The notes under the pieces: generated by a model
What the model saw: the letters and a program-made list of their open reading frames with translations, nothing else
Database searches by the model: none
What the model was told of the DNA's origin: nothing
From: an uncultured Christensenellaceae bacterium
Lineage (GTDB): Bacteria; Bacillota; Clostridia; Christensenellales; DTU072
Length of the DNA stretch: 64,000 nt
Reading direction: 5' to 3'
Assembly: GCA_964613035.1 (NCBI GenBank)
Contig: CAZTFQ010000007.1
Coordinates: 8,409 to 72,408, forward strand
Shown: one piece after another, positions 16,554-30,951 of the stretch
Layout of the letters: the number at the start of each line of letters is the position of its first letter
How positions within the stretch are numbered: the stretch's first letter is position 1
Program-made: the position numbers and the translations under genes

Positions 16554-17414
16554 ATGATTTATATTGCAGGAAGTCTGAATATGGATATGGTGATAACCAG
16601 CCCTTATATCCCTAAAGAGGGCGAGACGATTACGGGCGGCGATTTCATCACCAACGGCGGCGGAAAAGGTGCCAATCAGGCAGTGGCGTGCGCCAAGCTC
16701 GGCGGCAAGGTTGCGATGTGCGGAGCGGTCGGAGACGATATCTTCGGCGTGACTCTTATCGACAATCTGAATAAGGTCGGCGTCGACACGACTCATATAA
16801 GCGTGGTTAAGGGAGTCTCTACGGGGATAGCCGTCATTATAGTCACCGACAATAACAATCGCATCATCCTGGATAAAGGCGCCAATGCCCGTCTGACGAA
16901 AGAAAACATCCGCGACTTCTTAAAAGACGCTCAAGCGGGGGATATATATCTTACTCAGCTCGAGAACCCCGTCGACGTAGTGGGATACGGACTGAAATTG
17001 GCTAAGGAAAAGGGACTCTTTACGATTTTGAATCCCGCTCCCGCCGATACGGATATATCGGAATATTTCGAGTACGTCGATTTAATCACGCCCAACGAAA
17101 CCGAGTCGGAACTCTTCGGAGGCAAAGAGTCGCTGTTTTCCGAAGGCATCGAGAAGATCGTCACGACTCTCGGCGGCAGAGGATACGAGATTGCCTCCAA
17201 GGAAGGCTCCGTCGTATATCCTTGTATGAAAGTTAACGTCGTCGATACTACGGCAGCGGGCGATACCCTGTGCGGCGGGCTGGCGGTCGGACTCTCGGAA
17301 AACATGTCGCTCGAGGACGCTTGTGCATTGGGTAGTAAAGCTGCATCTATCGCGTGCGAAAAGAGAGGCGCGCAACAGTCTATTCCGACAAGAAAAGAGG
17401 TTGAAACCTATTAA
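16554..17414 (+). CDS. rbsK: Ribokinase (PfkB family)
   Basis: GSLNMD, GGKGANQAVA, VGDDIFG, ILNPAP, PNETE, VDTTAAGDT motifs. Confidence 0.88.
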   Translation: MIYIAGSLNMDMVITSPYIPKEGETITGGDFITNGGGKGANQAVACAKLGGKVAMCGAVGDDIFGVTLIDNLNKVGVDTTHISVVKGVSTGIAVIIVTDNNNRIILDKGANARLTKENIRDFLKDAQAGDIYLTQLENPVDVVGYGLKLAKEKGLFTILNPAPADTDISEYFEYVDLITPNETESELFGGKESLFSEGIEKIVTTLGGRGYEIASKEGSVVYPCMKVNVVDTTAAGDTLCGGLAVGLSENMSLEDACALGSKAASIACEKRGAQQSIPTRKEVETY

Positions 17415-17461
17415 CGACGATTCCGATTCTGTAAGGCAGGAATAAAAAACAGGAGAAAAAT

Positions 17462-20400
17462 ATGAAAAAGTCCAAGTTTTTATTTATCCTCATAACGATT
17501 ATAGCCGTCGTCGCGGTCGGACTCACCGCGTGCGATAACGGAGAAAAGGACAATGTAACCGTCACATTAGACGGCGAGACTTTATCCGTTAAGGCGGGAG
17601 AATCTATAGAGGAACCTTCCGTACCTAAAAAAGATTCCACCGCGCAATACGATTACGTTTTCGACGGATGGTATATAGAAGGGACCGACGTTAAATGGGA
17701 TTTCGCTACGGATAAAGCGACGGAGAACCTTTCTCTAGTGTCCGTTTTCACGGAAGTCACCAGACAATATCGAGTGAAAATCGGCGATACCGACTTAGGT
17801 TTAAAAGATTACGGAACCAGGCTCGACGTCCCCGAAGATCCGACCAAGGCTTCCGACCAATATTTCGATTATATCTTCCTCGGCTGGTATAAGGATGAAA
17901 AATACTCCGAGCAATGGGACTTCGACAACGACGTAGTCATCGGCGAAACGACGATACGCGCTAAGTTTAAGGGCGAGACAAGACGGTTCAACGTAACGAT
18001 TAACGGCGCCGAGCCCGTTACTTATAAGTACTTGGAAAAGATATCCCGACCCGCAGACCCCGAAGTCCCCGAAAATCTCCGCGGCACGCATAAGTTCGAT
18101 TGCTGGATTAATGAGGCTACCGATCGGATGTGGAATTTCGAAAAAGATTACGTCGCGTCGGATATCGTCCTTGTCCCGAGATTTATAGAACTGTTCACTT
18201 TCGAGATACTCTCCGAAGAAGTCGTCCTCGGCGGGAATAAATATGCGGCGATGAGTATTACCGACCAAGATTACGCGTCGATGACGGTAGTAATCAAGGA
18301 CTCTTCGGGAGAAGAGGTTGAGCTCGGCGCTATACGCGACGGCGCGTTAAGACTCGATATCGCAAGAGGCGATTATTCTTATGAAATTACTTTTCGAGGG
18401 ATGGTTTCTCAGGGACAGTTCAGCGTCGGCGACGTTAACGAGTACAAGGCGTATATCGCTCCCGACGTGAAGATAGGCGGCTATATGGGCAAGACTAGCG
18501 CCGTCTACAGATATCCTTCTTACGGCGTCAATTATGCCGTGGACGGAGACTCGATTTCTATGTGGAACATAACCTATGCCTTCGCAGGCGACGGCACTCT
18601 GGTGGATAAAGTTTATATCGAAGCCGACGAACTTTTCCCGTCCAATGCCCTGGGGATGATGGCGGGCATAATGCCTGCATGCGACTACGCCAATCTTTCG
18701 GGCGACGCCGCGTATGCATATCGCGGAGACACGGATAAAAACAAAAACAAATTGGTGTTCTCCGTATCTGCCAACAAAACTCTCTATTCGCAGATGTCCG
18801 AGGGATGGGGGAGCGGCACCGGTATTATCGCGGAAACGCAAAACGTCGTGTCGATCAATACCAAATATAAGCTCGCCGTGCTCAGATACGAAGACAACTA
18901 TTACGTTTTCGTCGACGGAAAACTTCAACTGGTCTATAATACGGACGCCTTCGACAAGTCAGGGTTCGGATTCTGCATAACGACGGATTTCGGTAAGACC
19001 GGCGAAAGTAACCCCATTACGTATTCCGACGTCAGATATATAACGGACGAGGAGGTTTTACTGAGAATGAAGCAAGAGGTCGTGGGCTCGGCTACCGTCG
19101 ATTACGATGCCGAGACGATATCGGTCACGCAATCCGATACGGAGCTCGTCGAAGGCGTCGCCATACCGGGCGTACGCACGTATCTGGAATTCAACGCTCC
19201 CTCGGGTAAGTCGATGGTAGGATACGAAGTCTCTTCCGATAACGGCAATGTAACCGTATACGAAGAAGACGGCAAGATTTGGTTCGTCCCGACGAGAGAC
19301 AGAGTCTATTCGATATCGGCGCGCTTTATCGACGAAATAGATTCCGCCGTTACGATTGAATTCAAGCCGTACGCGTTATTGCTGGGCGGCAAAGAATACG
19401 CGCTGCACGACTTCGATATCGACCCCGCGGATATAGAGCTGTCCGTATTCGATTATTCCTCTTCCGAGACCCGTTCGATTAAGGTCGAAGAACTTACGCC
19501 CGTGCTTAGTTTGAAGACCGGAAGATATACCTTTATCGCAAAATACGCCGATAACGTTACGGAAGTGCCCGTGTCCGTCACCGAGAACAGCGGCGTCGTA
19601 ACGATATATCTCTCCGATGCCTATATGGGCGGAAAAGTATCCGGTAACGGCTATACGGCTTCCAGTTATAATAACGCAGCGGCGGACGCGACGTCGGGTA
19701 CGAGCTGGAATCTGAAGAGCGGAATGCGCGATACGGTCAGTATGACCAACTACACCTTCGTGTATTACAGAGGTTTGTATGCTTCTTCTTATTACGCGGA
19801 AGCTTATTTCGATACGTCATTACCCGACTACAATCTCAATACGACCAATAAATTCAGCGGTATAATGATCGCTTCCAGACACGTTAATCTCGACGGCGAC
19901 GGAACGGGAACCGACGATAAAATGAAAATTCTGGTCGGAATATACGGCAAGAGCATCGTGCTTACCTATACCAACGGCTGGTCGGCATCCAACACGATCA
20001 CCGTTGCCAACTGGTCTCAGATTATCGATACGCTACCCGAAAAGGTCAAGCTGGGAGTCTTGAGAGACGGCACGGATTATTATTTCTTCGTCAACGATAC
20101 TTTCGTGACCAAGAAGAATCTCTCGCTGATCACCGAGGATTGCGGCGTGGGACTTGCAAGTTTAAACAATAAGAGCGTCGTGTATAAATTCAACGCTTCT
20201 ACGGACGCAAGTCTCGTTTCCGCGCTGAAGAGTATGGCGATAGAGGGACCCAAGCAGATAGACATCTATATAATGGCAGGTCAGTCGAACGCTTCCGGAT
20301 ATACCGCTTTCGACAACGCGACGATGATTGCTTACGACGACTCCACCGTCTACGGCAATAACAACGTCTTATACGCGGGCAGAGCGCAATATACCGGCAC

Positions 20401-21169
20401 TAACAAAACCGTCGGTTACAACGAATACAATTGGGGACTGGCTCGTGTGGGACAAGGCTGGTCCAACACTAAGATGAGCGCGGAAGCTTCCATGTCGGCG
20501 ATACTCGCGTCTTATTACAACGCATCCTCGGGCAAGGTGGCGGGCATAATCAAATTCGCTCACGGCGGAACCGCCCTTCTTAACAGCCTCACCGGCGAAA
20601 ACGCCGTCGGCGGCAACTGGGTTCCTAAGTCTTATGCGGATATCAAGGGGTATGAATGGTCCGTCGGAGATCCTCTTACGGGAAGATTGTATAGGAATCT
20701 CTTAAAGCAGGTCGAGCAGAGAGTAGAAGAGCTCAGAGCGGACGGTTATACGGAGATTAACATAAAAGGCGTATGGTGGATGCAGGGAGAAGCCGATAAG
20801 TATTCCCCCGACGAGTATAAAGTGATTCTCGAATACTTCATTTCCGACTTGAGAAGAGACCTCGGAGAAATTACCGACGAAGACTTGTCCGAGTTGCCAT
20901 TCATAATAGGAGAGATATCCAGAACCTCCGGCAACGCCGACATCTCAGTCAGCGTCAATAAGAAGTTCATCGCCATGCAAAACGCTTACTGCGAATCGCA
21001 CGATAACGTGTATATCAGTAAAATAGGCGATTACGATATCAATAAAATGGTCGACGGCACCAGCGTCGCGGTCGGTACCGACTCCTGGCACTGGAATCAG
21101 AACGATATGATTAAGATAGGCGAAGACGCCGCAAGAATCATCCTCGAAAAAATTCTCAACGTCGACTAG
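17462..21169 (+). CDS. Surface lipoprotein: Listeria-Bacteroides-type repeats, lectin-like domains and C-terminal SASA (sialate/carbohydrate O-acetylesterase, SGNH) domain
   Basis: Lipobox LTAC. Three repeats of the P.K....Y.F.GWY....WDF type. C-terminal IYIMAGQSNA, KFAHGGTAL, VWWMQGEAD, DSWHW (SGNH Ser and Asp-x-x-His). Confidence 0.82.
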   Translation: MKKSKFLFILITIIAVVAVGLTACDNGEKDNVTVTLDGETLSVKAGESIEEPSVPKKDSTAQYDYVFDGWYIEGTDVKWDFATDKATENLSLVSVFTEVTRQYRVKIGDTDLGLKDYGTRLDVPEDPTKASDQYFDYIFLGWYKDEKYSEQWDFDNDVVIGETTIRAKFKGETRRFNVTINGAEPVTYKYLEKISRPADPEVPENLRGTHKFDCWINEATDRMWNFEKDYVASDIVLVPRFIELFTFEILSEEVVLGGNKYAAMSITDQDYASMTVVIKDSSGEEVELGAIRDGALRLDIARGDYSYEITFRGMVSQGQFSVGDVNEYKAYIAPDVKIGGYMGKTSAVYRYPSYGVNYAVDGDSISMWNITYAFAGDGTLVDKVYIEADELFPSNALGMMAGIMPACDYANLSGDAAYAYRGDTDKNKNKLVFSVSANKTLYSQMSEGWGSGTGIIAETQNVVSINTKYKLAVLRYEDNYYVFVDGKLQLVYNTDAFDKSGFGFCITTDFGKTGESNPITYSDVRYITDEEVLLRMKQEVVGSATVDYDAETISVTQSDTELVEGVAIPGVRTYLEFNAPSGKSMVGYEVSSDNGNVTVYEEDGKIWFVPTRDRVYSISARFIDEIDSAVTIEFKPYALLLGGKEYALHDFDIDPADIELSVFDYSSSETRSIKVEELTPVLSLKTGRYTFIAKYADNVTEVPVSVTENSGVVTIYLSDAYMGGKVSGNGYTASSYNNAAADATSGTSWNLKSGMRDTVSMTNYTFVYYRGLYASSYYAEAYFDTSLPDYNLNTTNKFSGIMIASRHVNLDGDGTGTDDKMKILVGIYGKSIVLTYTNGWSASNTITVANWSQIIDTLPEKVKLGVLRDGTDYYFFVNDTFVTKKNLSLITEDCGVGLASLNNKSVVYKFNASTDASLVSALKSMAIEGPKQIDIYIMAGQSNASGYTAFDNATMIAYDDSTVYGNNNVLYAGRAQYTGTNKTVGYNEYNWGLARVGQGWSNTKMSAEASMSAILASYYNASSGKVAGIIKFAHGGTALLNSLTGENAVGGNWVPKSYADIKGYEWSVGDPLTGRLYRNLLKQVEQRVEELRADGYTEINIKGVWWMQGEADKYSPDEYKVILEYFISDLRRDLGEITDEDLSELPFIIGEISRTSGNADISVSVNKKFIAMQNAYCESHDNVYISKIGDYDINKMVDGTSVAVGTDSWHWNQNDMIKIGEDAARIILEKILNVD

Positions 21170-21250: not shown

Positions 21251-22072
21251 TCATAATTCTGACGGCTCGGCATAACGTTCCATCGCCTTTTTCGCATAAG
21301 TGCAGGGCGGAAGTCCCATACGGCGCTTAAAAGCGTAACTGAAATAAGACTGTGAAGAAAACCCGCATTCGTAAGCGATTTGAGTCAGCGTCATGTCGGT
21401 GGAAATCAACAGATTGACGGACTTTTTAATTCGTTCCTCTTCGATATAATCGTGCAGAGTTTTGCCGGTGGCGGCTTTGAAAAGTTTATGAAAATAAGTC
21501 GGAGAAAATTTAGCTTCGCTCGCCAGCGCGTCAAGGTCCAGTTTCGAGGTGATATTCTCGTTGATGTACGCTATTGCGTTTTCTATGACGGAGCGGTTGC
21601 TCCTCTTGGCGCGATAGGATGTTTTTGAATTGCGAGAATGGCGGTAGAGCAAATAAATCAATTCCAAAAACAGACTGTGGAGCATACATTCGTCTTCTTT
21701 AGTGCCGTTGTCGTAATGCTCGCACATTTGCATGAAGATATTGCGGATACGTTTCGAGTCGGACGTTTCGATGAAATCGGGCATATTTATTGCCATATCG
21801 TAAAGGAAGCCCTCTTGAAGAATCATATGGATGTAGTAACACTTAAAAGGAACTCTCGTATGACGGATTTGACCGGGTTTGGCGCAGATGACCAGATTTT
21901 TCTTAATCGGGTGCGAGGCGTCGTCGATATAGGATATGCCTCCGTCTTCCATCGGAATTTCTATTTCGAACATAGTCGTTTTTCTGTTCCGCGAGACGGT
22001 TCTGTTTTTCAGCGCGACTTGCGCGTTGTATATTCCCACCGCTACGATTTGCGGTAAAATCATTTCTTTCAT
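21251..22072 (-). CDS. AraC-family transcriptional regulator
   Basis: Probable start ATG 22072 (MKEMILPQ). C-terminal LDALASEAKFSPTYFHKLFK...IAYECGFSSQSYFSYAFKRRMGLPP. Divergent from the sugar-acid operon. Confidence 0.93.
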   Translation of the reverse strand: MKEMILPQIVAVGIYNAQVALKNRTVSRNRKTTMFEIEIPMEDGGISYIDDASHPIKKNLVICAKPGQIRHTRVPFKCYYIHMILQEGFLYDMAINMPDFIETSDSKRIRNIFMQMCEHYDNGTKEDECMLHSLFLELIYLLYRHSRNSKTSYRAKRSNRSVIENAIAYINENITSKLDLDALASEAKFSPTYFHKLFKAATGKTLHDYIEEERIKKSVNLLISTDMTLTQIAYECGFSSQSYFSYAFKRRMGLPPCTYAKKAMERYAEPSEL

Positions 22073-22185
22073 AAGCCCTCTTAATGACAAGATATCTAAT
22101 AAAGATAGCAAATTTTATATATACTCAGAACAAAAAATAATATACAATAAAATCGAAAAAAGAGTCAACGGGAATGTAGAATTTT

Positions 22186-22869
22186 ATGAAAATAACGTGG
22201 CTGGGACAGGCGGGATTGCTTTTTGAGGACGGCGAGACGAAAATATTGGTCGATCCTTATCTTACCGACAGCGTGGCTAAGATAGAACCGCTCAATTTCA
22301 GGCGGCAGCGTATAGACGAGCGATTCTTGAAAATACGTCCCGACGTTATCGTCGTTACCCACGATCACGCCGATCATATGGATAAAGAAACGTTGTCGAG
22401 TTATTTGTCGGAAAACAGCCGCGTGGCGGTGCTCGCACCGTTTTCCGCATGGAAAGAAGTGCGGAAATTCGGCGGCGAACGTAACAATTATATTATGTTC
22501 AACGACGGAACGACTCGGACGGAAAAAAGCGTGACTTTCCGTGCGGTAAAAGCCGAACATTCCGACGAATACGCTATAGGCGTCGTTATAACCGCGGACG
22601 GGAAGAATTATTACGTTACGGGCGACACGCTGTATAGCGAGAGAGTTTTTTCAGGTTTGCCCGAGATTAGGTTCGAGGCGGTCTTTTTGCCGATTAACGG
22701 AGTAGGCAACAATATGAACGTAGCCGACGCGGAGATGTTTTTAGAGAGAATAAAAACGAAATATGCCGTCCCTATTCATTTCGGGATGTTCGATTGCTTA
22801 ACGGGAGAGGAATTGTCGGGAGACAACGTCGTGATCCCTAAAATATACGAAGAGGTGGAGTTAAAATGA
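22186..22869 (+). CDS. Metallo-beta-lactamase-fold hydrolase (UlaG-like, candidate sugar lactonase)
   Basis: ITWLGQAG, LVDPYL, THDHADH (HxHxDH), AEH, GDT, PIH motifs. Confidence 0.8.
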   Translation: MKITWLGQAGLLFEDGETKILVDPYLTDSVAKIEPLNFRRQRIDERFLKIRPDVIVVTHDHADHMDKETLSSYLSENSRVAVLAPFSAWKEVRKFGGERNNYIMFNDGTTRTEKSVTFRAVKAEHSDEYAIGVVITADGKNYYVTGDTLYSERVFSGLPEIRFEAVFLPINGVGNNMNVADAEMFLERIKTKYAVPIHFGMFDCLTGEELSGDNVVIPKIYEEVELK

Positions 22870-24026
22870 AAATTACCGATATTAAAACTTTTGTGGTGGA
22901 TTGTTTTCGTACCAATTGGGTGTTTGTCAAAGTGTATACCGACGAGGGAATAACCGGCGTCGGCGAAGGGACTCTGGAATATAAAGAAAAAGCTCTCGTC
23001 GGCGCGGTGGAACATATAAGAAGTTATCTTATAGGAAAAGACCCTACGCAGATAGAGAAGCATTATCACTATATTTATCGCGACGCGTATTGGCGCGGCG
23101 GCGCGGTTTTGATGAGCGCTCTGTCAGCGGTCGAGTGCGCGTTGTGGGATATCGTCGGTAAGTCGCTGGGCGTGCCTGTATATAAATTATTGGGCGGCAA
23201 GGTCAACGACGACGTGAGAATTTACGTCAACGGATGGTTCTCGGGAGCAAAAACTCCCGAAGAATTCGGCGAAAAAGCCAAAGAAGCCGTTAAAAAAGGC
23301 GTAACGGCAATGAAATGGGATCCGTTCGGGAAAAGTTACTTACAGATTTCCAACGCCGATCTGGACAACGCTCTGAGATGCGTCGCCGAGGTAAGAAGCG
23401 CGGTGGGAGATAAGGTCGACTTGTTAATAGAAGGACACGGCAGATTCGACGTGCCCACGGGTATAAAAATCGCCAACGAGCTTGCTCCTTTCAAGCCGAT
23501 GTGGTTCGAAGAACCCGTCCCGCCTAACAATCTTGAAGCGCTAAAAGCGGTCAGAGATAAATCCCCCGTTGCGATTTCGGCGGGAGAAAGATTGTATACG
23601 AGGTTCGATTACAATGAATTGTTCCGCACTCGCGCTTGCGATTATATCCAGCCCGACGTGTCTCACGCCGGCGGAATAATGGAACTTAAAAAGATCGCGG
23701 CTATGGCGGAAGCCGACTATATTCCGTTCGCTCCGCACAATCCCTCGGGTCCGATCGCCAATGCGGCCACTCTTCAACTGGCGGCGTGCTGTCCCAACTT
23801 TTGTATTCTGGAGATAATGTATTCCGACGTGGAGTATCGTAAATACGTTACCGACGAAAATCTCGAATACAAAGACGGGAGAATAAAAATCGGAGACAAG
23901 CCCGGCTTGGGGATAGAATTAAACGAGGAAGAATGTCTGAAACATCCGTATACGGAACACAATTTACGCCATTATACGGGCGCGCTGACCGATATCCGTC
24001 CTCCTAAAACCGAGTTTTATTTTTAG
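22866..24026 (+). CDS. Enolase-superfamily aldonate dehydratase (galactonate dehydratase DgoD-like)
   Basis: FVKVYTDEGITGVGE, YWRGGAVLMSALSA, KWDP, EGHGRF, EEPVP, GERL, QPD, APHNP: mandelate racemase/DgoD pattern. Confidence 0.85.
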   Translation: MKITDIKTFVVDCFRTNWVFVKVYTDEGITGVGEGTLEYKEKALVGAVEHIRSYLIGKDPTQIEKHYHYIYRDAYWRGGAVLMSALSAVECALWDIVGKSLGVPVYKLLGGKVNDDVRIYVNGWFSGAKTPEEFGEKAKEAVKKGVTAMKWDPFGKSYLQISNADLDNALRCVAEVRSAVGDKVDLLIEGHGRFDVPTGIKIANELAPFKPMWFEEPVPPNNLEALKAVRDKSPVAISAGERLYTRFDYNELFRTRACDYIQPDVSHAGGIMELKKIAAMAEADYIPFAPHNPSGPIANAATLQLAACCPNFCILEIMYSDVEYRKYVTDENLEYKDGRIKIGDKPGLGIELNEEECLKHPYTEHNLRHYTGALTDIRPPKTEFYF

Positions 24027-24073
24027 TAACGTCGCTTTTGCGAAGAATATTATCTAAAATCAAGGAGTATACA

Positions 24074-24874
24074 ATGCAAAACATTAATATGACGGAAAAC
24101 TTCGCGCTCGTAACGGGAGCGTGTATCAATACCGGCGTAGCCATCGTGGAGAAATTTTTGTCGGAAGGAGTCAACGTCGTTTTTACCGGGAGAAACGCCT
24201 CGAGCGTATCGATAGCGGAAAAGACGTATCGCGAAAAATATCCTCGAGCGCAAGTCCTGGGATACGTTTTGAATTCGATCGACGAGAGCGGTCGGGTCGA
24301 CGAAGAGTCCGTAATAAAGTTGTTCGACACGTTGGACGAAAAAGGCGTTTTTGTCGGGAGTTTAGTGCTGAATGCGGCGGATCAGGGCTTGAATATGAAG
24401 ATTTTTGAGAGTCCTCTTGCCGATTTTCAGCGCGTAATCGATACCAACGTATGCTGGAATTACTGTCTTGCGGAACACGCGGCTAAGCGTATGAAACAGC
24501 GCGGCGGCGGAAGTATCGTTTTCGTTAACTCCAACACGGCGTATCGTGCCATTCCCGACAGAATAGCATACGAGGCGAGCAAAGGCGGTCAGCTCGGAAT
24601 GATGAGAGGACTGGCTTTGGATTTAGGCAAATATAATATTCGCGTCAATGCGGTGTTACCGGGGATGATAAAAACCGATCGCTGGGAGAAAAACCCCGAC
24701 TTCTACAAAAACGTACCCTCGCGTTATACTCCTCTCGGCGACGTGGCGACAGGAGAGGATATTGCCGACGCGGTCTGGTATTTCGTCGCGCACGCAAGGA
24801 ATACTACGGGTGCGGAACTCGTAGTAGACGGCGGCAACACGATTCAACTTTATCCGATCGTTCCGAAAAATTAG
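24074..24874 (+). CDS. Short-chain dehydrogenase/reductase (SDR)
   Basis: ATG 24074 after AAGGAG. Atypical Rossmann motif TGACINTG, LNAA, catalytic YEASK, IRVNAVLPG, VVDGG. Confidence 0.88.
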   Translation: MQNINMTENFALVTGACINTGVAIVEKFLSEGVNVVFTGRNASSVSIAEKTYREKYPRAQVLGYVLNSIDESGRVDEESVIKLFDTLDEKGVFVGSLVLNAADQGLNMKIFESPLADFQRVIDTNVCWNYCLAEHAAKRMKQRGGGSIVFVNSNTAYRAIPDRIAYEASKGGQLGMMRGLALDLGKYNIRVNAVLPGMIKTDRWEKNPDFYKNVPSRYTPLGDVATGEDIADAVWYFVAHARNTTGAELVVDGGNTIQLYPIVPKN

Positions 24875-24901
24875 CGACACTCGAATAACCGAAAAAGGAT
24901 A

Positions 24902-25495
24902 ATGAAAATGGATAGAGTAATACCCGTAGCGGTAATCGAAAATATAGAGGACACCGAGCGTATATTATCGTCCCTTAGGGAAGGCGGCGTTAACGTGGCG
25001 GAAATTACCTTTCGGACGGCTTGTGCTAAAGACGCGATCGCGCTAGGTCTGGAGCTGTTTCCCGATATGAATATCGGCGCGGGCACGGTGATTAACGCGG
25101 AACAATGCAATCAGGCGTTGGACGCGGGGGCTAAGTTTGTCGTTTCTCCGGGGTTTTCCGAGGACGTGGCAAAAATATGCAAGGCGCGCGGCGTAGACTA
25201 TTATCCCGGTTGCGTAACTCCTACCGAGATAATGACCGCGTTGGAATACGGCTTGACGACGATTAAGTTTTTCCCTGCCGACGTGTACGGCGGATTGAAA
25301 GCGTTGAAGGCTCTCTCGGGTCCCTTTCCTCAGGTTAAATTTATTCCCACCGGCGGCGTGAATTTGACCAATCTGAAGGATTTTTTGGAATTCGACAAGG
25401 TATATGCGGTCGGAGGTTCTTTTATGATGAAAGGAAATATCGTAGAAAATTGTAAAAAAATCAATGCAATAGTAAGGGAGACGGAATCTAAATGA
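24902..25495 (+). CDS. eda: KDPG/KHG aldolase
   Basis: AEITFRT, GAGTV, FVVSPG, PG..TPTE, KFFPA, PTGGV. Confidence 0.92.
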   Translation: MKMDRVIPVAVIENIEDTERILSSLREGGVNVAEITFRTACAKDAIALGLELFPDMNIGAGTVINAEQCNQALDAGAKFVVSPGFSEDVAKICKARGVDYYPGCVTPTEIMTALEYGLTTIKFFPADVYGGLKALKALSGPFPQVKFIPTGGVNLTNLKDFLEFDKVYAVGGSFMMKGNIVENCKKINAIVRETESK

Positions 25496-26514
25496 AAAAA
25501 GTAGTTACGTTCGGCGAATTGATGTTGAGACTCGCCCCGGAGAATTATTTAAGATTCGTACAGAGCGATAAATACGAAGCGACTTTCGGCGGTGCGGAAG
25601 CTAACGTTGCGGTCAGCCTCGCCAATTACGGCGTCGACGCGGCGTTTGTTTCAAAACTCCCCTCGCACGAGATAGGTCAAGCCGCGATCAACAGCTTAAG
25701 AAAATTCGGCGTGGATACGACTAAAATCGTCCGCGGCGGAGACAGAGTAGGAATCTATTATTGCGAAAAGGGCGCGAGTCAACGTCCCTCTAAGGTCATA
25801 TACGACAGAGCCTATTCTTCGATTGCCACGGCTAGTCCGTCCGATTTCGACTGGGATAAAATTTTTGAAGACGTCGACTGGTTTCATTTTACGGGTATTA
25901 CCCCGGCTCTAGGAGAGCTTATGCCCGATATTTTGGAAGAAGCGTGCCGTGTGGCAAAAGCTAAGGGCTGTACCGTCTCTTGCGACCTTAATTTCCGAAA
26001 AAAATTATGGAGTAAGGAAAAAGCCGAGAGGGTTATGAGCAAGCTTTGCGGTTACGTGGACTATTGCATTGCCAACGAGGAAGACGCAAAAGAAGTCTTC
26101 GGGATAGAAGCGGACAATACCGATATCGATACGGGCAGACTCGACAGAGACGGTTATGTATGCGTTGCGAAACGACTAACCGAGAGATTTGACTTCAAAG
26201 GAGTGGCGATTACTCTCAGAGAAAGCCTTTCCGCCAACGATAACAATTGGTCGGCTATGTTGTACACGGACGGAGAAGCGGTCTTTTCTAAAAAGTACTC
26301 GATGCATATCGTGGACAGAGTAGGAGGGGGCGACTCCTTCGGAGCGGGGTTGATTTACGCTATTCTTAACGGTTACGACGCACGGAAAACAATCGAATTC
26401 GCCGTAGCGGCGAGTTGCTTGAAGCATTCTATAGAAGGCGACTACAATATGGTCTCGGTATCCGAGGTTGAAGCCCTTGCCGAGGGCAACGCCTCCGGAA
26501 GAGTTCAAAGATAA
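25492..26514 (+). CDS. kdgK: 2-keto-3-deoxy-sugar-acid kinase (KdgK, PfkB family)
   Basis: FGELMLRL, GGAEANVA, GASQRPSKVIYDR, GITPAL, DLNFR.KLW, DRVGGGDSF. Confidence 0.9.
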   Translation: MKKVVTFGELMLRLAPENYLRFVQSDKYEATFGGAEANVAVSLANYGVDAAFVSKLPSHEIGQAAINSLRKFGVDTTKIVRGGDRVGIYYCEKGASQRPSKVIYDRAYSSIATASPSDFDWDKIFEDVDWFHFTGITPALGELMPDILEEACRVAKAKGCTVSCDLNFRKKLWSKEKAERVMSKLCGYVDYCIANEEDAKEVFGIEADNTDIDTGRLDRDGYVCVAKRLTERFDFKGVAITLRESLSANDNNWSAMLYTDGEAVFSKKYSMHIVDRVGGGDSFGAGLIYAILNGYDARKTIEFAVAASCLKHSIEGDYNMVSVSEVEALAEGNASGRVQR

Positions 26515-26552: not shown

Positions 26553-26585
26553 AAAGAACCCGAACGAAAGTTTCGGGTTCTTTTT
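26553..26585 (+). terminator. Intrinsic terminator of the sugar-acid operon
   Basis: AAAGAACCCGAA-CGAAAGT-TTCGGGTTCTTTTT; nearly identical to the terminator at 21191-21224. Confidence 0.85.
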
Positions 26586-26646
26586 ACGATGTGACGTATT
26601 GCAAAAACTTTTTCGTTGTTGTATACTCGATACGAGGACAAATTTT

Positions 26647-27825
26647 ATGAAAAAGCAATCTAAAATAGCATTAACGCTGATTATAACGGCGGTGCTGATT
26701 ATCGCGGTGTCGCTAATCGTAATTTTACAAGACGTCACGATAGACGAGGGAGTCGGAGAACTTAACGGTCGATACGGGACCGTTATCGCCGATATAGACG
26801 GGATAAAAGAAGCCAATCCGCGCTTCGTCGACATCGCGATGCTCGGCTCTCACGACGCCGTTACGGATACTATCGACAGGTCCGCTCCCATAGATTACAA
26901 CGATAAGGATAAAGCTCAGGGAGTGCTGGATCCGTTGATAGGGGGTATTTCATATCGCTATGCGAAAACGCAGACCGTCGATATAACTCGACAGCTCGGA
27001 CAAGGGGCGAGGTTCTTTCATATCAAATGCACCGATTACGACGGAGAATGGTACGGCGCTCACTCCCATCTGTGCGGCAAGATGAGCGACTATATCACGC
27101 AATTGTTGAAATATCTGGCGTCCGACGAGGCGAAGGGAGAAATAATCGTCTTGTTGTTCCAGATCACCTATTTCGGCGAAGGTCGGAATCTGGATACGTT
27201 TAACGAATTTTTGTTGCAGACGACGTATGACGGGAAGTCGATATTCGATTACGTCTATATCGACGACGCCGACTCGTTCGACGAAGGAGACGGCGGAACG
27301 AGAGTAGGGGACTTAAGATATCGCGATTTGACTTTAGACGGCTCCGCCCCGGGAGCGGTGATTTTTTATCGCAGAGAATATGGTAAGTTTAAGCCCGAGT
27401 GGGAAGGTAAAGGAAAATTGACAAAAAAATGCTTCGATATGGACGCCTGCGCCGTACACGATTGGCATAACGGCATAGGAGAAGAGCGACTTATCGAAAA
27501 AATCAACGCCTCTTGCGATAAAATAGCCTCCGACGATAGTCTTTTGAGTAAGTTTAGGCTCAATCAGGCTCAGGCGTCGTTCGCCGTGCACGGAGCGGGA
27601 GAGTTCTTTTCGGTCATAGGGTCGTGGTCTCTCATACGTTTCGCGACGTCGTACAACGCGGCTCTTCTCGATAACGAAAATTTCGATAAATGGCTATCGG
27701 CAATGCCTGTTTTTCAAGTGGATTTTTGTAATAGCGACCATTATGATTTCAATAACCGCGTCAACGAAAAAATCAGAAAATTTAACGTCGATTTAGTTGA
27801 AAGCATACTTAATTATAAATATTGA
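26647..27825 (+). CDS. Secreted or membrane-anchored PI-PLC-like (PLC X-domain) phosphodiesterase
   Basis: Probable start ATG 26647 (MKKQSKI...) with an N-terminal TM/signal. MLGSHDA and TQ..DIT.QL..GARFFHI match the PI-PLC X-domain pattern (catalytic His in SHD). Confidence 0.65.
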   Translation: MKKQSKIALTLIITAVLIIAVSLIVILQDVTIDEGVGELNGRYGTVIADIDGIKEANPRFVDIAMLGSHDAVTDTIDRSAPIDYNDKDKAQGVLDPLIGGISYRYAKTQTVDITRQLGQGARFFHIKCTDYDGEWYGAHSHLCGKMSDYITQLLKYLASDEAKGEIIVLLFQITYFGEGRNLDTFNEFLLQTTYDGKSIFDYVYIDDADSFDEGDGGTRVGDLRYRDLTLDGSAPGAVIFYRREYGKFKPEWEGKGKLTKKCFDMDACAVHDWHNGIGEERLIEKINASCDKIASDDSLLSKFRLNQAQASFAVHGAGEFFSVIGSWSLIRFATSYNAALLDNENFDKWLSAMPVFQVDFCNSDHYDFNNRVNEKIRKFNVDLVESILNYKY

Positions 27826-28773: not shown

Positions 28774-30951
28774 ATGATAGAATATATCGAGTCTAAGAGA
28801 GCGTTTTTATTGAGCGGTAAGGGATATTGCTATGCAATGTACGTCAATCGGGCGGGCTTTTTGCAACAGCTGTATTACGGCAAGCCTATATCCGTAGGCG
28901 ATCTCGATATGCTGATATCCGTACACGGAATATCCGCGTCGCCCGATCCCGACGATATCAATTACGAGACTTTTACCGACAATATGCCTAGCGAATGCGG
29001 CTGTTTCGGCAAGGGAGATTATCGCCCTTCGACGGTTATAATCAATCGCGTCGACGGTGCGTCGATGAGCAGACTTAAGTATCTTTCTCACAGCGTGACC
29101 GCCGGTGCGCTCGACCTCGGCGACCTGCCTCATACGCGCAGCTGCGACGAAACGCTCACCGTTATATTGAAAGACGACCTTTCCGATACGGAAATAGCTC
29201 TCAATTATTCCGTAACAGCCGATTCTCCCGTTCTGGTACGCAATCTGGTCGTGCGTAACGTCGGAAAAGAGCCTATCGACCTTAAGAAAGCGTATTCTTT
29301 CTGCTTGGATTTACCCGATTCGGGCAGATATTCCGCGATGAGACTTGCCGGCGGCTGGGCTACGGAACGTACCCCCAAGGTTACGCCTTTGACGGACGGT
29401 ACCCTCAGAGTAGAATCTGCAGTGGGGTTTTCTTCCCACAGAATGAATCCTTTCTTAGGGATACTAGTAGACGATTGCAATGAAGACGGCGGCGAGTGCT
29501 ACGGCTTTAATCTGTTGTACAGCGGTTCCTTTGCATTGATAGCGGATACGTCGTATCAACAGCGTCTCCGTATCTGCGGCGGAATCAACGATACGATGTT
29601 CTCCTGGCACTTGGAATCGGGGGAAGAATTGGTTACGCCTCAGGTCGCCATGTGTTATTCGTCGGGCGGTCTGGGAGAAATGTCCAGAGGATATCACGAC
29701 TTTTTCCGCGATTATATAATCAATCCTAAATTTGCCTATAAGCATCATCCGATAGTCATCAACAACTGGGAAGGGACGTATTTCGACTTCGACAACGATA
29801 AGCTCTTCGCAATAATCGACGCGGCTAAGGATACCGGCATAGACACGTTCGTCTTAGACGACGGATGGTTCGGCGCGCGTAACGACGACAAGAGAGGCTT
29901 AGGCGACTGGTACGTCAACGAAAACAAGCTCCGCGGCGGACTTAAACCCGTCATCGACAGATGTAAACGTAACGGACTTAAATTCGGTCTCTGGTTCGAG
30001 CCCGAGATGATATCCGAGGACAGCGACTTGTATCGCGCGCATCCCGACTGGGCTATCAAAAAGGACGGCGTCGAGCCGTGCCGTTGCCGCAATCAGCTTA
30101 TACTGGACTTCACCAGAGCGGAAATCGTCGACTATATATTCGAGACGGTCTCGAAAATTCTCGGAGAAAACGATATATCTTACGTCAAATGGGACAGAAA
30201 TAAGGAGATGACGGAATTTTTCTCCGCGTCGCTTTCCTCCGACCGCCAGGGAGAATTCGTGCATAGATATACTCTGGGGTTCTATAACCTCGCAAGAAGG
30301 CTTCAGGAGGCTTTTCCCGACGTGTTTTTCGAAGGATGTGCGGGAGGCGGCGGAAGATTCGACGGCGGCGCGCTGTATTACTATCCTCAGATATGGACCA
30401 GCGACGACACCGACGGACTGGAGAGAACTAAGATTCAGTGGGGTACTTCTATGTGCTATCCCGTGTCGAGTATGAGCTGTCACGTCGCGGCTTGTCCCAA
30501 TCACCAGACGGGACGTACGACTCCGTTCTCAACCAGAGGCGCCATAGCGTCTCTCGGCTCTACGGGATACGAGCTGGACCTCGCCAAGTTGACGGAAGAA
30601 GAAAAGCGTCTGGTCATAGAACAGGTCGCCGCTTATAAGAGAATAGAAGAGCTTGTGATTAAAGGAGACCTCTTCAGAATTTCGGATCCTTTTAAGAGTA
30701 ATTACTTCTGTGAAATGCTCGTCTCTAAAGACAAGTCGAGAGCGTATCTCGTATGCGAAAGATTCCGCACGACGCCTTGCGAGCACGATATAGTGATGAA
30801 GCTAAAAGGTCTCGACGAGAACAAGACCTATATAGTCCTGCAGTCGGGAGTTAAAGCGACGGGAGCCGCTCTTATGAACGTCGGACTTCTCTATCCGCGC
30901 CTCTTCGATTGCGAGAGCGTTACCCTCAATCTGGAAGAAGCCTCCGACTAG
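28774..30951 (+). CDS. Alpha-galactosidase, GH36
   Basis: NNWEGTYFDF, FVLDDGWFG, GDW..N..K, FGLWFEPEM, YVKWD.N, EGCAGGGGRFD, WTSDDTD, HVAACPNHQTGR, GYELDL. Confidence 0.96.
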   Translation: MIEYIESKRAFLLSGKGYCYAMYVNRAGFLQQLYYGKPISVGDLDMLISVHGISASPDPDDINYETFTDNMPSECGCFGKGDYRPSTVIINRVDGASMSRLKYLSHSVTAGALDLGDLPHTRSCDETLTVILKDDLSDTEIALNYSVTADSPVLVRNLVVRNVGKEPIDLKKAYSFCLDLPDSGRYSAMRLAGGWATERTPKVTPLTDGTLRVESAVGFSSHRMNPFLGILVDDCNEDGGECYGFNLLYSGSFALIADTSYQQRLRICGGINDTMFSWHLESGEELVTPQVAMCYSSGGLGEMSRGYHDFFRDYIINPKFAYKHHPIVINNWEGTYFDFDNDKLFAIIDAAKDTGIDTFVLDDGWFGARNDDKRGLGDWYVNENKLRGGLKPVIDRCKRNGLKFGLWFEPEMISEDSDLYRAHPDWAIKKDGVEPCRCRNQLILDFTRAEIVDYIFETVSKILGENDISYVKWDRNKEMTEFFSASLSSDRQGEFVHRYTLGFYNLARRLQEAFPDVFFEGCAGGGGRFDGGALYYYPQIWTSDDTDGLERTKIQWGTSMCYPVSSMSCHVAACPNHQTGRTTPFSTRGAIASLGSTGYELDLAKLTEEEKRLVIEQVAAYKRIEELVIKGDLFRISDPFKSNYFCEMLVSKDKSRAYLVCERFRTTPCEHDIVMKLKGLDENKTYIVLQSGVKATGAALMNVGLLYPRLFDCESVTLNLEEASD

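Follow-up and report, generated by a model that had tools for sequence, protein, structure and literature searches.

A route from gluconate through a gluconate dehydratase, a 2-keto-3-deoxy-gluconate (KDG) kinase and Eda was reportedly described in Clostridium aceticum in 1969. Dehydratase-KDG kinase-Eda routes are also found in C. acetobutylicum (PMC4179846) and in gut Blautia and Enterocloster (PMC11424487), and the route of C. acetobutylicum has a predicted IlvD-type dehydratase and a symporter that imports gluconate (PMC4179846). The scheme that starts from a free sugar, with an aldose dehydrogenase, a lactonase and a dehydratase, is established as well (PMC6336799), and this triad is attributed to anaerobes for L-fucose by Watanabe (2020), as cited in PMC11199699. 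Here we analyze an operon at positions 22186-26514 of a 64,000-nucleotide stretch of contig CAZTFQ010000007.1 from an uncultured Christensenellaceae bacterium, a stretch that is called the window throughout. The operon encodes a metallo-beta-lactamase (MBL)-fold hydrolase, an enolase-superfamily dehydratase, a short-chain dehydrogenase/reductase (SDR), a 2-keto-3-deoxy-6-phosphogluconate (KDPG) aldolase and a PfkB kinase, and a gene for an AraC-family regulator lies divergent to it. We assign a probability of about 0.5 to our main reading, in which the AraC regulator controls the five genes and the operon provides a semi-phosphorylative Entner-Doudoroff (ED)-type route. A rubrerythrin gene in the window, together with relatives among metagenome-assembled genomes of gut Clostridia, fits a host that is a probable anaerobe.

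Results

A five-gene operon and its proposed route

The operon begins with the gene for an MBL-fold binuclear metallo-hydrolase of 227 aa (22186-22869, plus strand; Lactamase_B_2/B_3), followed on the same strand by the genes for an enolase-superfamily acid-sugar dehydratase of 386 aa (22866-24026; MR_MLE_N and MR_MLE_C), a classical SDR (24038-24874; adh_short and adh_short_C2), a KDPG/KHG (Eda-type) class I aldolase (24902-25495; TIGR01182), and a PfkB kinase, probably for KDG or 2-keto-3-deoxy-galactonate (KDGal) (25492-26514; Pfam PfkB). The MBL and dehydratase genes overlap by 4 nt, as do the aldolase and kinase genes, and the other gaps are short. The AraC-family gene (21251-22111, minus strand; HTH_AraC and HTH_18) likely starts at an ATG at 22072 with AGAGGG before it, giving a protein of 273 aa, and the AT-rich divergent promoter region of 113 bp (22073-22185) contains promoter-like hexamers on both strands, which are consensus matches only. 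An intrinsic terminator at 26553-26585 (plus strand; hairpin of -19.5 kcal/mol, z -4.4, then a U run) closes the operon; it was missed by the terminator scan, and the hairpin was confirmed by folding. The listing of open reading frames (ORFs) and the hidden Markov model (HMM) scans agree with an earlier interpretation of this DNA made from its letters alone (the sequence-only reading) on the five ORFs with their coordinates and families, the divergent AraC gene, the TGACINTG loop of the SDR and the distance to a downstream glycoside hydrolase family 36 (GH36) gene.

As the sequence-only reading had also proposed, these five enzymes can be joined without a gap into one linear route that leads from an aldose to pyruvate and glyceraldehyde-3-phosphate. 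The SDR, which appears to be of the NADP type, would oxidize C1 of an aldohexose made in the cytoplasm from imported oligosaccharides, and the MBL hydrolase would open the aldonolactone. The dehydratase would then turn the aldonate into a 2-keto-3-deoxy acid, the PfkB kinase would make the 6-phosphate of this acid, and the Eda-type aldolase would yield pyruvate and glyceraldehyde-3-phosphate; these three reactions are assigned at the family level, and their substrates are the presumed ones. The whole scheme, which uses each of the five enzymes once, is the most economical reading, and we give it even odds; its lower three steps (dehydratase, kinase and aldolase) are very probable.

The draft genome of the window organism (1.65 Mb, 93% complete) contains a single copy each of the MBL, dehydratase and SDR genes (hereafter the trio), of Eda and of KdgK, all in the operon. 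Searches of this draft genome, in which absence is not proof, gave no UxaC, UxuA, UxaA, KduI or DgoK. The genome shows no other evident source of a keto-deoxy-hexonate, and this ties the dehydratase to the two enzymes that follow it, the kinase and the aldolase. Ordinary hexuronate (Ashwell) catabolism, the counter-case that the sequence-only reading had set against its own proposal, was rejected as unlikely here because the first four of these enzymes have no matches.

A conserved core in uncultured gut Clostridia

A scan of one genome per species gave 540 relatives of the dehydratase, and the best 80 loci (L001-L080) were analyzed; 40 of these are well flanked, with at least 5 kb on both sides. 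All 80 loci come from uncultured gut Clostridia (roe deer, sheep, goat, yak, reindeer, chicken, and Hadza and Nepali people), and finding the same core in 80 loci of other species indicates that the arrangement is not due to chance. The SDR gene adjoins the dehydratase gene in 40/40 well-flanked loci, and the dehydratase is accompanied by the MBL gene in 29 and by AraC in 34 of the 40. The gene order varies, with the MBL gene either before or after the dehydratase and SDR genes. Relative to the window proteins, the dehydratase has a median identity of 88%, the SDR one of 71%, the MBL protein one of 55% and AraC one of 33%. Across the 80 loci, the divergent position is filled by either of two AraC types, one ~46-62% and the other ~25-33% identical to the regulator of the window.

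The aldolase and kinase genes are linked to the core in the window and in L027 alone, and an aldolase gene alone is also linked in L041. In L027 the order is AraC / MBL-GH16-dehydratase-GH39-like-SDR-aldolase-kinase. In an evenly drawn sample of 201 genomes of the order, close orthologues of the dehydratase (at least 80% identical) occur in nine genomes from four families, counting the window genome, and none was found in the seven other genomes of the window organism's own family. Eda is present in 10/10 genomes with a dehydratase at least 56% identical (nine of them at least 80%), compared with 120/201 overall; the genomes are related to one another, and this co-occurrence gives weak support.

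A dehydratase clade separate from DgoD

The dehydratase is 85-90% identical across the 80 loci, which belong to different families and orders of gut Clostridia, and the four-fold degenerate sites of its genes are 35% identical, i.e., near saturation. Because the synonymous sites are saturated, the protein identity of ~88% reflects very strong purifying selection. Recent horizontal transfer was rejected as the cause of this identity, given the state of the four-fold sites and the far greater divergence of the neighboring genes. More than 7,800 clusters (90% identity) of the dehydratase family were found at E <=1e-40 in the protein database, a set that also includes distant relatives such as true DgoD enzymes, and the few top matches bearing a name are called 'galactonate dehydratase' in NCBI. 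The window dehydratase passes the NF010624 model of that name (362 bits, cut-off 311). It also scores 338 bits on NF040790, the model of archaeal gluconate/galactonate dehydratase, which is below the equivalog cut-off; because the two scores are nearly equal, the match to NF010624 leaves the specificity of the dehydratase unsettled.

The NF010624 match and the NCBI name of the orthologues are points in favor of the parent sugar suggested by the sequence-only reading. In that alternative, D-galactose released by GH36 would enter a De Ley-Doudoroff route, with the SDR as galactose dehydrogenase, the MBL hydrolase as galactonolactonase, the dehydratase as DgoD and KdgK in place of DgoK. In DgoD, His185 is the acid, His285 and Asp258 form a dyad, and three carboxylates are the metal ligands. 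An alignment to E. coli DgoD shows 34% identity, with the catalytic set H185, E209, E235, D258 and H285 kept in the window enzyme; the first metal ligand of DgoD, D183, is replaced by a Glu that is conserved in the orthologues. DgoD orthologues of the same order are 48-58% identical to E. coli DgoD and just 36-41% identical to the window dehydratase. In a maximum-likelihood tree, E. coli DgoD and four same-order enzymes form a clade (support 100/99), and the dehydratases of the trio form a separate one (94/98). Four loci (L083, L084, L087 and L088; genomes G029, G027, G164 and G078) are true dgo-type clusters, with a DgoD orthologue and an AVGG DgoA-type aldolase. Judged from these comparisons of sequence, the trio is distinct from the dgo system that these bacteria have.

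Related modules were also seen. In L089 (G102:C8:12000-24000), a dehydratase 56% identical to the window enzyme and a CVGG aldolase are encoded together with two SDRs, and an MBL gene whose product is 52% identical to that of the window lies 3 kb further on; L085 and L086 have a third dehydratase clade (48% identical) with KdgK and PSGG aldolases. These loci suggest that modules of this kind form a family, whose members perhaps act on sugars that differ in configuration.

The aldolase, the kinase and the galactose question

The aldolase passes the eda model TIGR01182 (238 bits, cut-off 156) and fails the model for 2-keto-3-deoxy-6-phosphogalactonate (KDPGal) aldolase; it is 40% identical to E. 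coli Eda and 27% identical to DgoA, and it keeps the Schiff-base lysine motif KFFPA. All three trio-linked aldolases (window, L027 and L041) have PTGG, as in E. coli Eda, and the aldolases adjoining true DgoD orthologues have AVGG, as in E. coli DgoA. The Thr/Val position of this motif presumably influences the selectivity between KDPG and KDPGal. The passed eda model, the failed KDPGal model, the PTGG motif and the dehydratase outside the DgoD clade together favor KDG, and the keto-deoxy acid is thus more likely to be KDG than KDGal. With the gluco/manno configuration of KDG at C4-C5, the parent sugar would more likely be a glucose- or mannose-configured hexose, or a derivative of one, than D-galactose.

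The kinase scores 608 bits on the kinase half of NF041633 and 250 bits on the model of the haloarchaeal KDG/KDGal kinase, in all cases below the cut-offs; NCBIfam includes archaeal models of bifunctional PfkB KDG/KDGal kinases. The sequence-only reading had regarded the replacement of DgoK by KdgK as non-canonical, which does not hold up, because a true DgoD/DgoA-type cluster (L084) contains a PfkB protein 59% identical to the window KdgK. A PfkB kinase can therefore replace DgoK in this order, as seen in this one cluster, and such a replacement is no peculiarity of the window operon. The same kinase subfamily in a true dgo-type cluster counts in favor of the galactose route, as does the possibility that GH42-like and GH16 enzymes of related operons free galactose.

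The GH36 gene, which the sequence-only reading had taken as a pointer to galactose, begins at 28774, 2.26 kb downstream of the kinase gene. It lies behind the terminator and two other genes, namely the ORF at 26599-27825 and an esterase gene, and is therefore outside the operon, as a separate transcription unit; none of the 80 related loci has a GH36 gene linked to the core. The sequence-only reading had also pointed to Leloir genes as a check on the galactose proposal, and such genes are present elsewhere in the genome, where a gene for a GalK-like GHMP kinase is divergent from one for a 506-aa type-2 GalT (G000:C3:76631-79128), probably a Leloir cluster to judge from these two genes. The GalK-like kinase is a 446-aa open frame and reaches 155 bits on TIGR00131 (cut-off 227). 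With a dehydratase only distantly related to E. coli DgoD and outside its clade, an aldolase of the PTGG/Eda type instead of the AVGG/DgoA type, a GH36 gene in another transcription unit and Leloir-type genes at hand, the galactose proposal is not supported. The De Ley-Doudoroff route for D-galactose is unlikely here, and we consider it fairly probable that the parent sugar is not D-galactose at all.

Roles considered for the SDR and the MBL hydrolase

The SDR likely starts at an ATG at 24074 with AAGGAG before it. Its cofactor loop, TGACINTG, is a TGAxxNTG variant in which Asn replaces the second Gly of TGxxxGxG, and T14, G15, A16, N19, T20 and G21 of the loop are invariant in 21 orthologues, as is the TGR motif. 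The Ser-Tyr-Lys triad is intact, and the NAAD and YxxSK motifs are present. The Arg of the TGR motif suggests NADP(H) use according to the coenzyme rules of SDRs. When the PDB and NCBIfam were searched with the single sequence and with a profile, the matches were all generic (~95-130 bits), and homology therefore does not assign a role to the SDR. Gluconate 5-dehydrogenases score nearly level with the best matches, and PDB entry 7b81, which we take to be an L-rhamnose 1-dehydrogenase, is within the top 60 PDB matches of the profile. We propose that the SDR is an aldose 1-dehydrogenase.

The scores of the gluconate 5-dehydrogenases would also suit an acid-sugar route without sugar oxidation. 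The SDR would then reduce a keto-acid or uronate, for example 5-keto-gluconate or fructuronate, to the aldonate, the MBL hydrolase would open an acid lactone such as glucuronolactone, and the dehydratase, kinase and aldolase would act as before. The NADP(H) use suggested by the conserved TGR motif agrees with this route, a reductive step suits an anaerobe, GH28 genes adjoin the core in 6 loci, and gut Clostridia are known to use gluconate via a dehydratase, a KDG kinase and Eda (PMC11424487). However, UxaC was not found in the genome, which leaves no evident source of fructuronate, no acid-sugar transporter was found in or beside the operon, and the linked cytoplasmic glycosidases and oligosaccharide ABC importers deliver neutral sugars. 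We regard the acid-sugar route as rather unlikely and prefer the oxidation of a free aldose by the SDR.

In nearly all loci the trio has no kinase or aldolase gene linked to it, which would also suit a non-phosphorylative route with a diketo hydrolase, of the kind known for L-fucose and L-rhamnose. There the dehydratase would act first, the SDR would oxidize C4 of the keto-deoxy acid, and the MBL hydrolase would split the 2,4-diketo acid into pyruvate and a hydroxy acid; SDR-type 4-dehydrogenases do follow enolase-type dehydratases in the L-fucose route (PMC11199699). However, the kinase and aldolase in the operons of the window and L027 would be redundant in such a route, and, as weak evidence, no entry named keto-deoxy-acid 4-dehydrogenase appears among the top 60 PDB matches of the SDR profile, where 7b81 does. 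In addition, the known diketo hydrolases belong to a different fold family, that of fumarylacetoacetate hydrolase (FAH). The diketo-hydrolase route is accordingly quite improbable compared with the proposed one.

The MBL protein matches Lactamase_B_2 (E 1.4e-15), and its binuclear metal site (HxHxDH 59-64, H125, D147 and H198) is invariant in 22 orthologues. The top Foldseek matches of its AlphaFold2 (AF2) model (pLDDT 94) are 2wym/2wyl (TM 0.78), which we recognize as E. coli UlaG, followed by UPF0173 hydrolases; a sequence-database search gave clusters named 'MBL fold metallo-hydrolase' alone. The sequence-only reading had called this protein a UlaG-like lactonase, which is correct for the nearest solved fold and fails at the level of the family model, as described below. 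We propose that the MBL hydrolase is an aldonolactonase. Aldonolactones also open spontaneously (PMC9795676), and the presence of the MBL gene in 72% of the well-flanked loci would fit a step that the enzyme accelerates. The Haloferax pentonolactonase is placed in SMP30 by a review (PMC9795676), and an MBL type for this enzyme was not confirmed.

Linked glycosidases and neighboring genes

Many related operons contain or adjoin glycosidase genes: GH16 in 21 loci, GH39-like in 13, GH28 in 6 and GH3 in 2. In ~9 loci there is an upstream set of genes for an ABC binding protein, a permease, a GH42-like protein and a carbohydrate esterase family 4 (CE4) deacetylase. None of the GH16, GH39-like, GH42-like, GH3 and GH28 partners is found in the window itself. 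The GH16, GH39-like, GH42-like, CE4 and GH28 proteins that were inspected all lack signal peptides, and the sugar therefore appears to be released in the cytoplasm; the module appears to receive it from imported oligosaccharides.

The GH16 genes inside related operons raise the possibility of an anhydro-sugar route like the marine 3,6-anhydrogalactose pathways, in which a GH16 enzyme would feed the route and the enolase-type enzyme would be a cycloisomerase. The anhydrogalactose route of Zobellia likewise uses a PfkB kinase, an Eda-family aldolase and an AraC regulator, and one GH16 protein of a related operon has a weak match to the kappa-carrageenase HMM (42 bits). The GH16 proteins keep ExDxxE, and against this route their profile is closest to laminarinases (83 bits), with porphyranases and carrageenases at 40-56 bits. 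In the search with the dehydratase, PDB entry 5olc ('Galactonate dehydratase'), which we take to be the Zobellia cycloisomerase, scores 140 bits, compared with 240 bits for DgoD/ManD-like structures. Moreover, the known anhydro-sugar routes use an aldehyde dehydrogenase and not an SDR, and the hosts are land herbivores, chickens and people who do not eat seaweed. An anhydro-sugar route is thus highly improbable, and we retain an aldonate dehydratase fed by the SDR and the MBL hydrolase.

Other genes were noted near the operon and its relatives. The 408-aa ORF at 26599-27825, whose likely start is the methionine of MKKQSK, has one N-terminal membrane helix and no Pfam or NCBIfam match; its GSHD motif looks like that of a PLC-type phosphodiesterase. 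It was rejected as a member of the operon because the terminator precedes it. Just upstream of the AraC gene, the region 16554-21169 of the window contains a ribokinase-like PfkB gene (TIGR02152, 297 bits, cut-off 300) adjoining the gene for a 1,235-aa protein with a SASA esterase domain and Listeria-Bacteroides repeats, and in L004 genes for a 48%-identical PfkB and a 1,180-aa protein lie just downstream of the trio. In six loci (e.g., L003, L006, L011, L028 and L039), genes for a MurQ-like SIS (GKRP-type) protein and a BadF/BcrA-type sugar kinase adjoin the trio, and homologues of these two (52% and 31% identical) lie ~2.5 kb before the window (G000:C7:4237-5949). This pair may point to an amino sugar with an ether or acyl substituent, or it may be there by coincidence.

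Discussion

Several observations weigh against the proposed route as a whole. The MBL protein scores far below the cut-off of the UlaG model NF008688 (31 bits versus 306) and matches it over residues 32-122 alone, and no characterized MBL-fold lactonase for free aldonolactones was found in the literature. No close characterized relative of the SDR was found in the PDB or NCBIfam, the best PDB profile matches being ~119 bits, and the SDR could be a reductase or act after the dehydratase. The rule for the Thr/Val position of the aldolase is one that we presume from the E. coli enzymes. In almost every other locus Eda and KdgK lie apart from the core, and UxaC is present in 7/8 other genomes with a close orthologue of the dehydratase, so that Eda and KdgK there need not serve the module; their exclusive tie to the trio is peculiar to the window genome. 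In addition, the genome contains Embden-Meyerhof-Parnas (EMP) genes (two phosphofructokinases, a ROK kinase and a phosphoglucose isomerase), which led us to reject the operon pathway as the sole glycolysis; with EMP and Leloir-type genes present, the oxidation of plain glucose or galactose would be redundant.

The presence of canonical routes for glucose and galactose, together with the divergent linked glycosidases, makes a modified or rare hexose a serious possibility. On this basis we put forward, as a tentative proposal that is more doubtful than the scheme itself, that the SDR and the dehydratase, usually with the MBL hydrolase, form an unrecognized and widespread pathway of gut Clostridia for a sugar beyond the EMP and Leloir routes. 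This might be, for example, a modified or rare hexose freed inside the cell by the divergent GH16, GH39-like, GH42-like and GH3 enzymes from dietary, fungal or microbial glycans, and it would involve the first MBL-fold aldonolactonase and a dehydratase of new specificity. The dehydratase family is very abundant in the gut metagenomes of ruminants, chickens and humans. The tree and the type of aldolase suggest that its automatically assigned name, 'galactonate dehydratase', is wrong; if so, a conserved route of carbohydrate metabolism is mis-assigned in the metabolic reconstructions made for many uncultured Clostridia. The identity of the substrate would reveal which glycan is harvested by these hard-to-culture bacteria, and it could add a new lactonase fold to sugar metabolism. 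NADP-linked sugar oxidation in strict fermenters also bears on their redox balance.

A cluster of an MBL lactonase, an enolase-type dehydratase and an SDR was not found described in the literature, and searches by PDB code for papers on the nearest structures gave nothing relevant. As far as we found, the literature does not describe this enzyme combination, a constrained dehydratase that is not DgoD, a divergent NADP-type SDR, a small MBL protein, and intracellular GH16, GH39-like and GH42-like partners, spread over thousands of sequences of gut Clostridia.

Among known systems, UlaG, the L-ascorbate-6-phosphate lactonase, offers the nearest solved fold for the MBL protein, shares its MBL metal site and acts on a sugar-acid lactone; it differs in its phosphorylated substrate and in length, as the window protein has 227 aa compared with ~300 residues in the UlaG chains and 355 positions in the UlaG model. 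The E. coli dgo operon has in common with the window operon an enolase-superfamily dehydratase with the same catalytic His/Asp/Glu set and the same type of reaction, whereas the window enzyme is 34% identical, falls in another clade and has Glu for Asp, and it is accompanied by an Eda-type aldolase in place of DgoA and a PfkB kinase in place of DgoK. The non-phosphorylative routes for L-fucose and pentoses have the same upper module, in which an aldose 1-dehydrogenase, a lactonase and an acid-sugar dehydratase act in turn; they use amidohydrolase or SMP30 lactonases and end in a non-phosphorylative aldolase or a diketo hydrolase, in contrast to the kinase and KDPG aldolase found here. The gluconate route of Clostridia resembles the proposed pathway in having a dehydratase, a PfkB KDG kinase and Eda in strict anaerobes, but the dehydratase of the window operon is of the enolase type, no acid transporter is present, an SDR and an MBL hydrolase are attached, and cytoplasmic glycosidases are attached as well. 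The archaeal semi-phosphorylative ED pathway of Sulfolobus, Thermoproteus and Haloferax has the same order of five reactions, catalyzed by glucose dehydrogenase, gluconolactonase, an enolase-superfamily gluconate dehydratase, a PfkB KDG kinase and KDPG aldolase, and shares the dehydratase superfamily and the PfkB kinase family; unlike it, the route proposed here would operate in a strict gut anaerobe with EMP genes and would use a divergent SDR, an MBL-fold protein as the proposed lactonase and an Eda-type aldolase.

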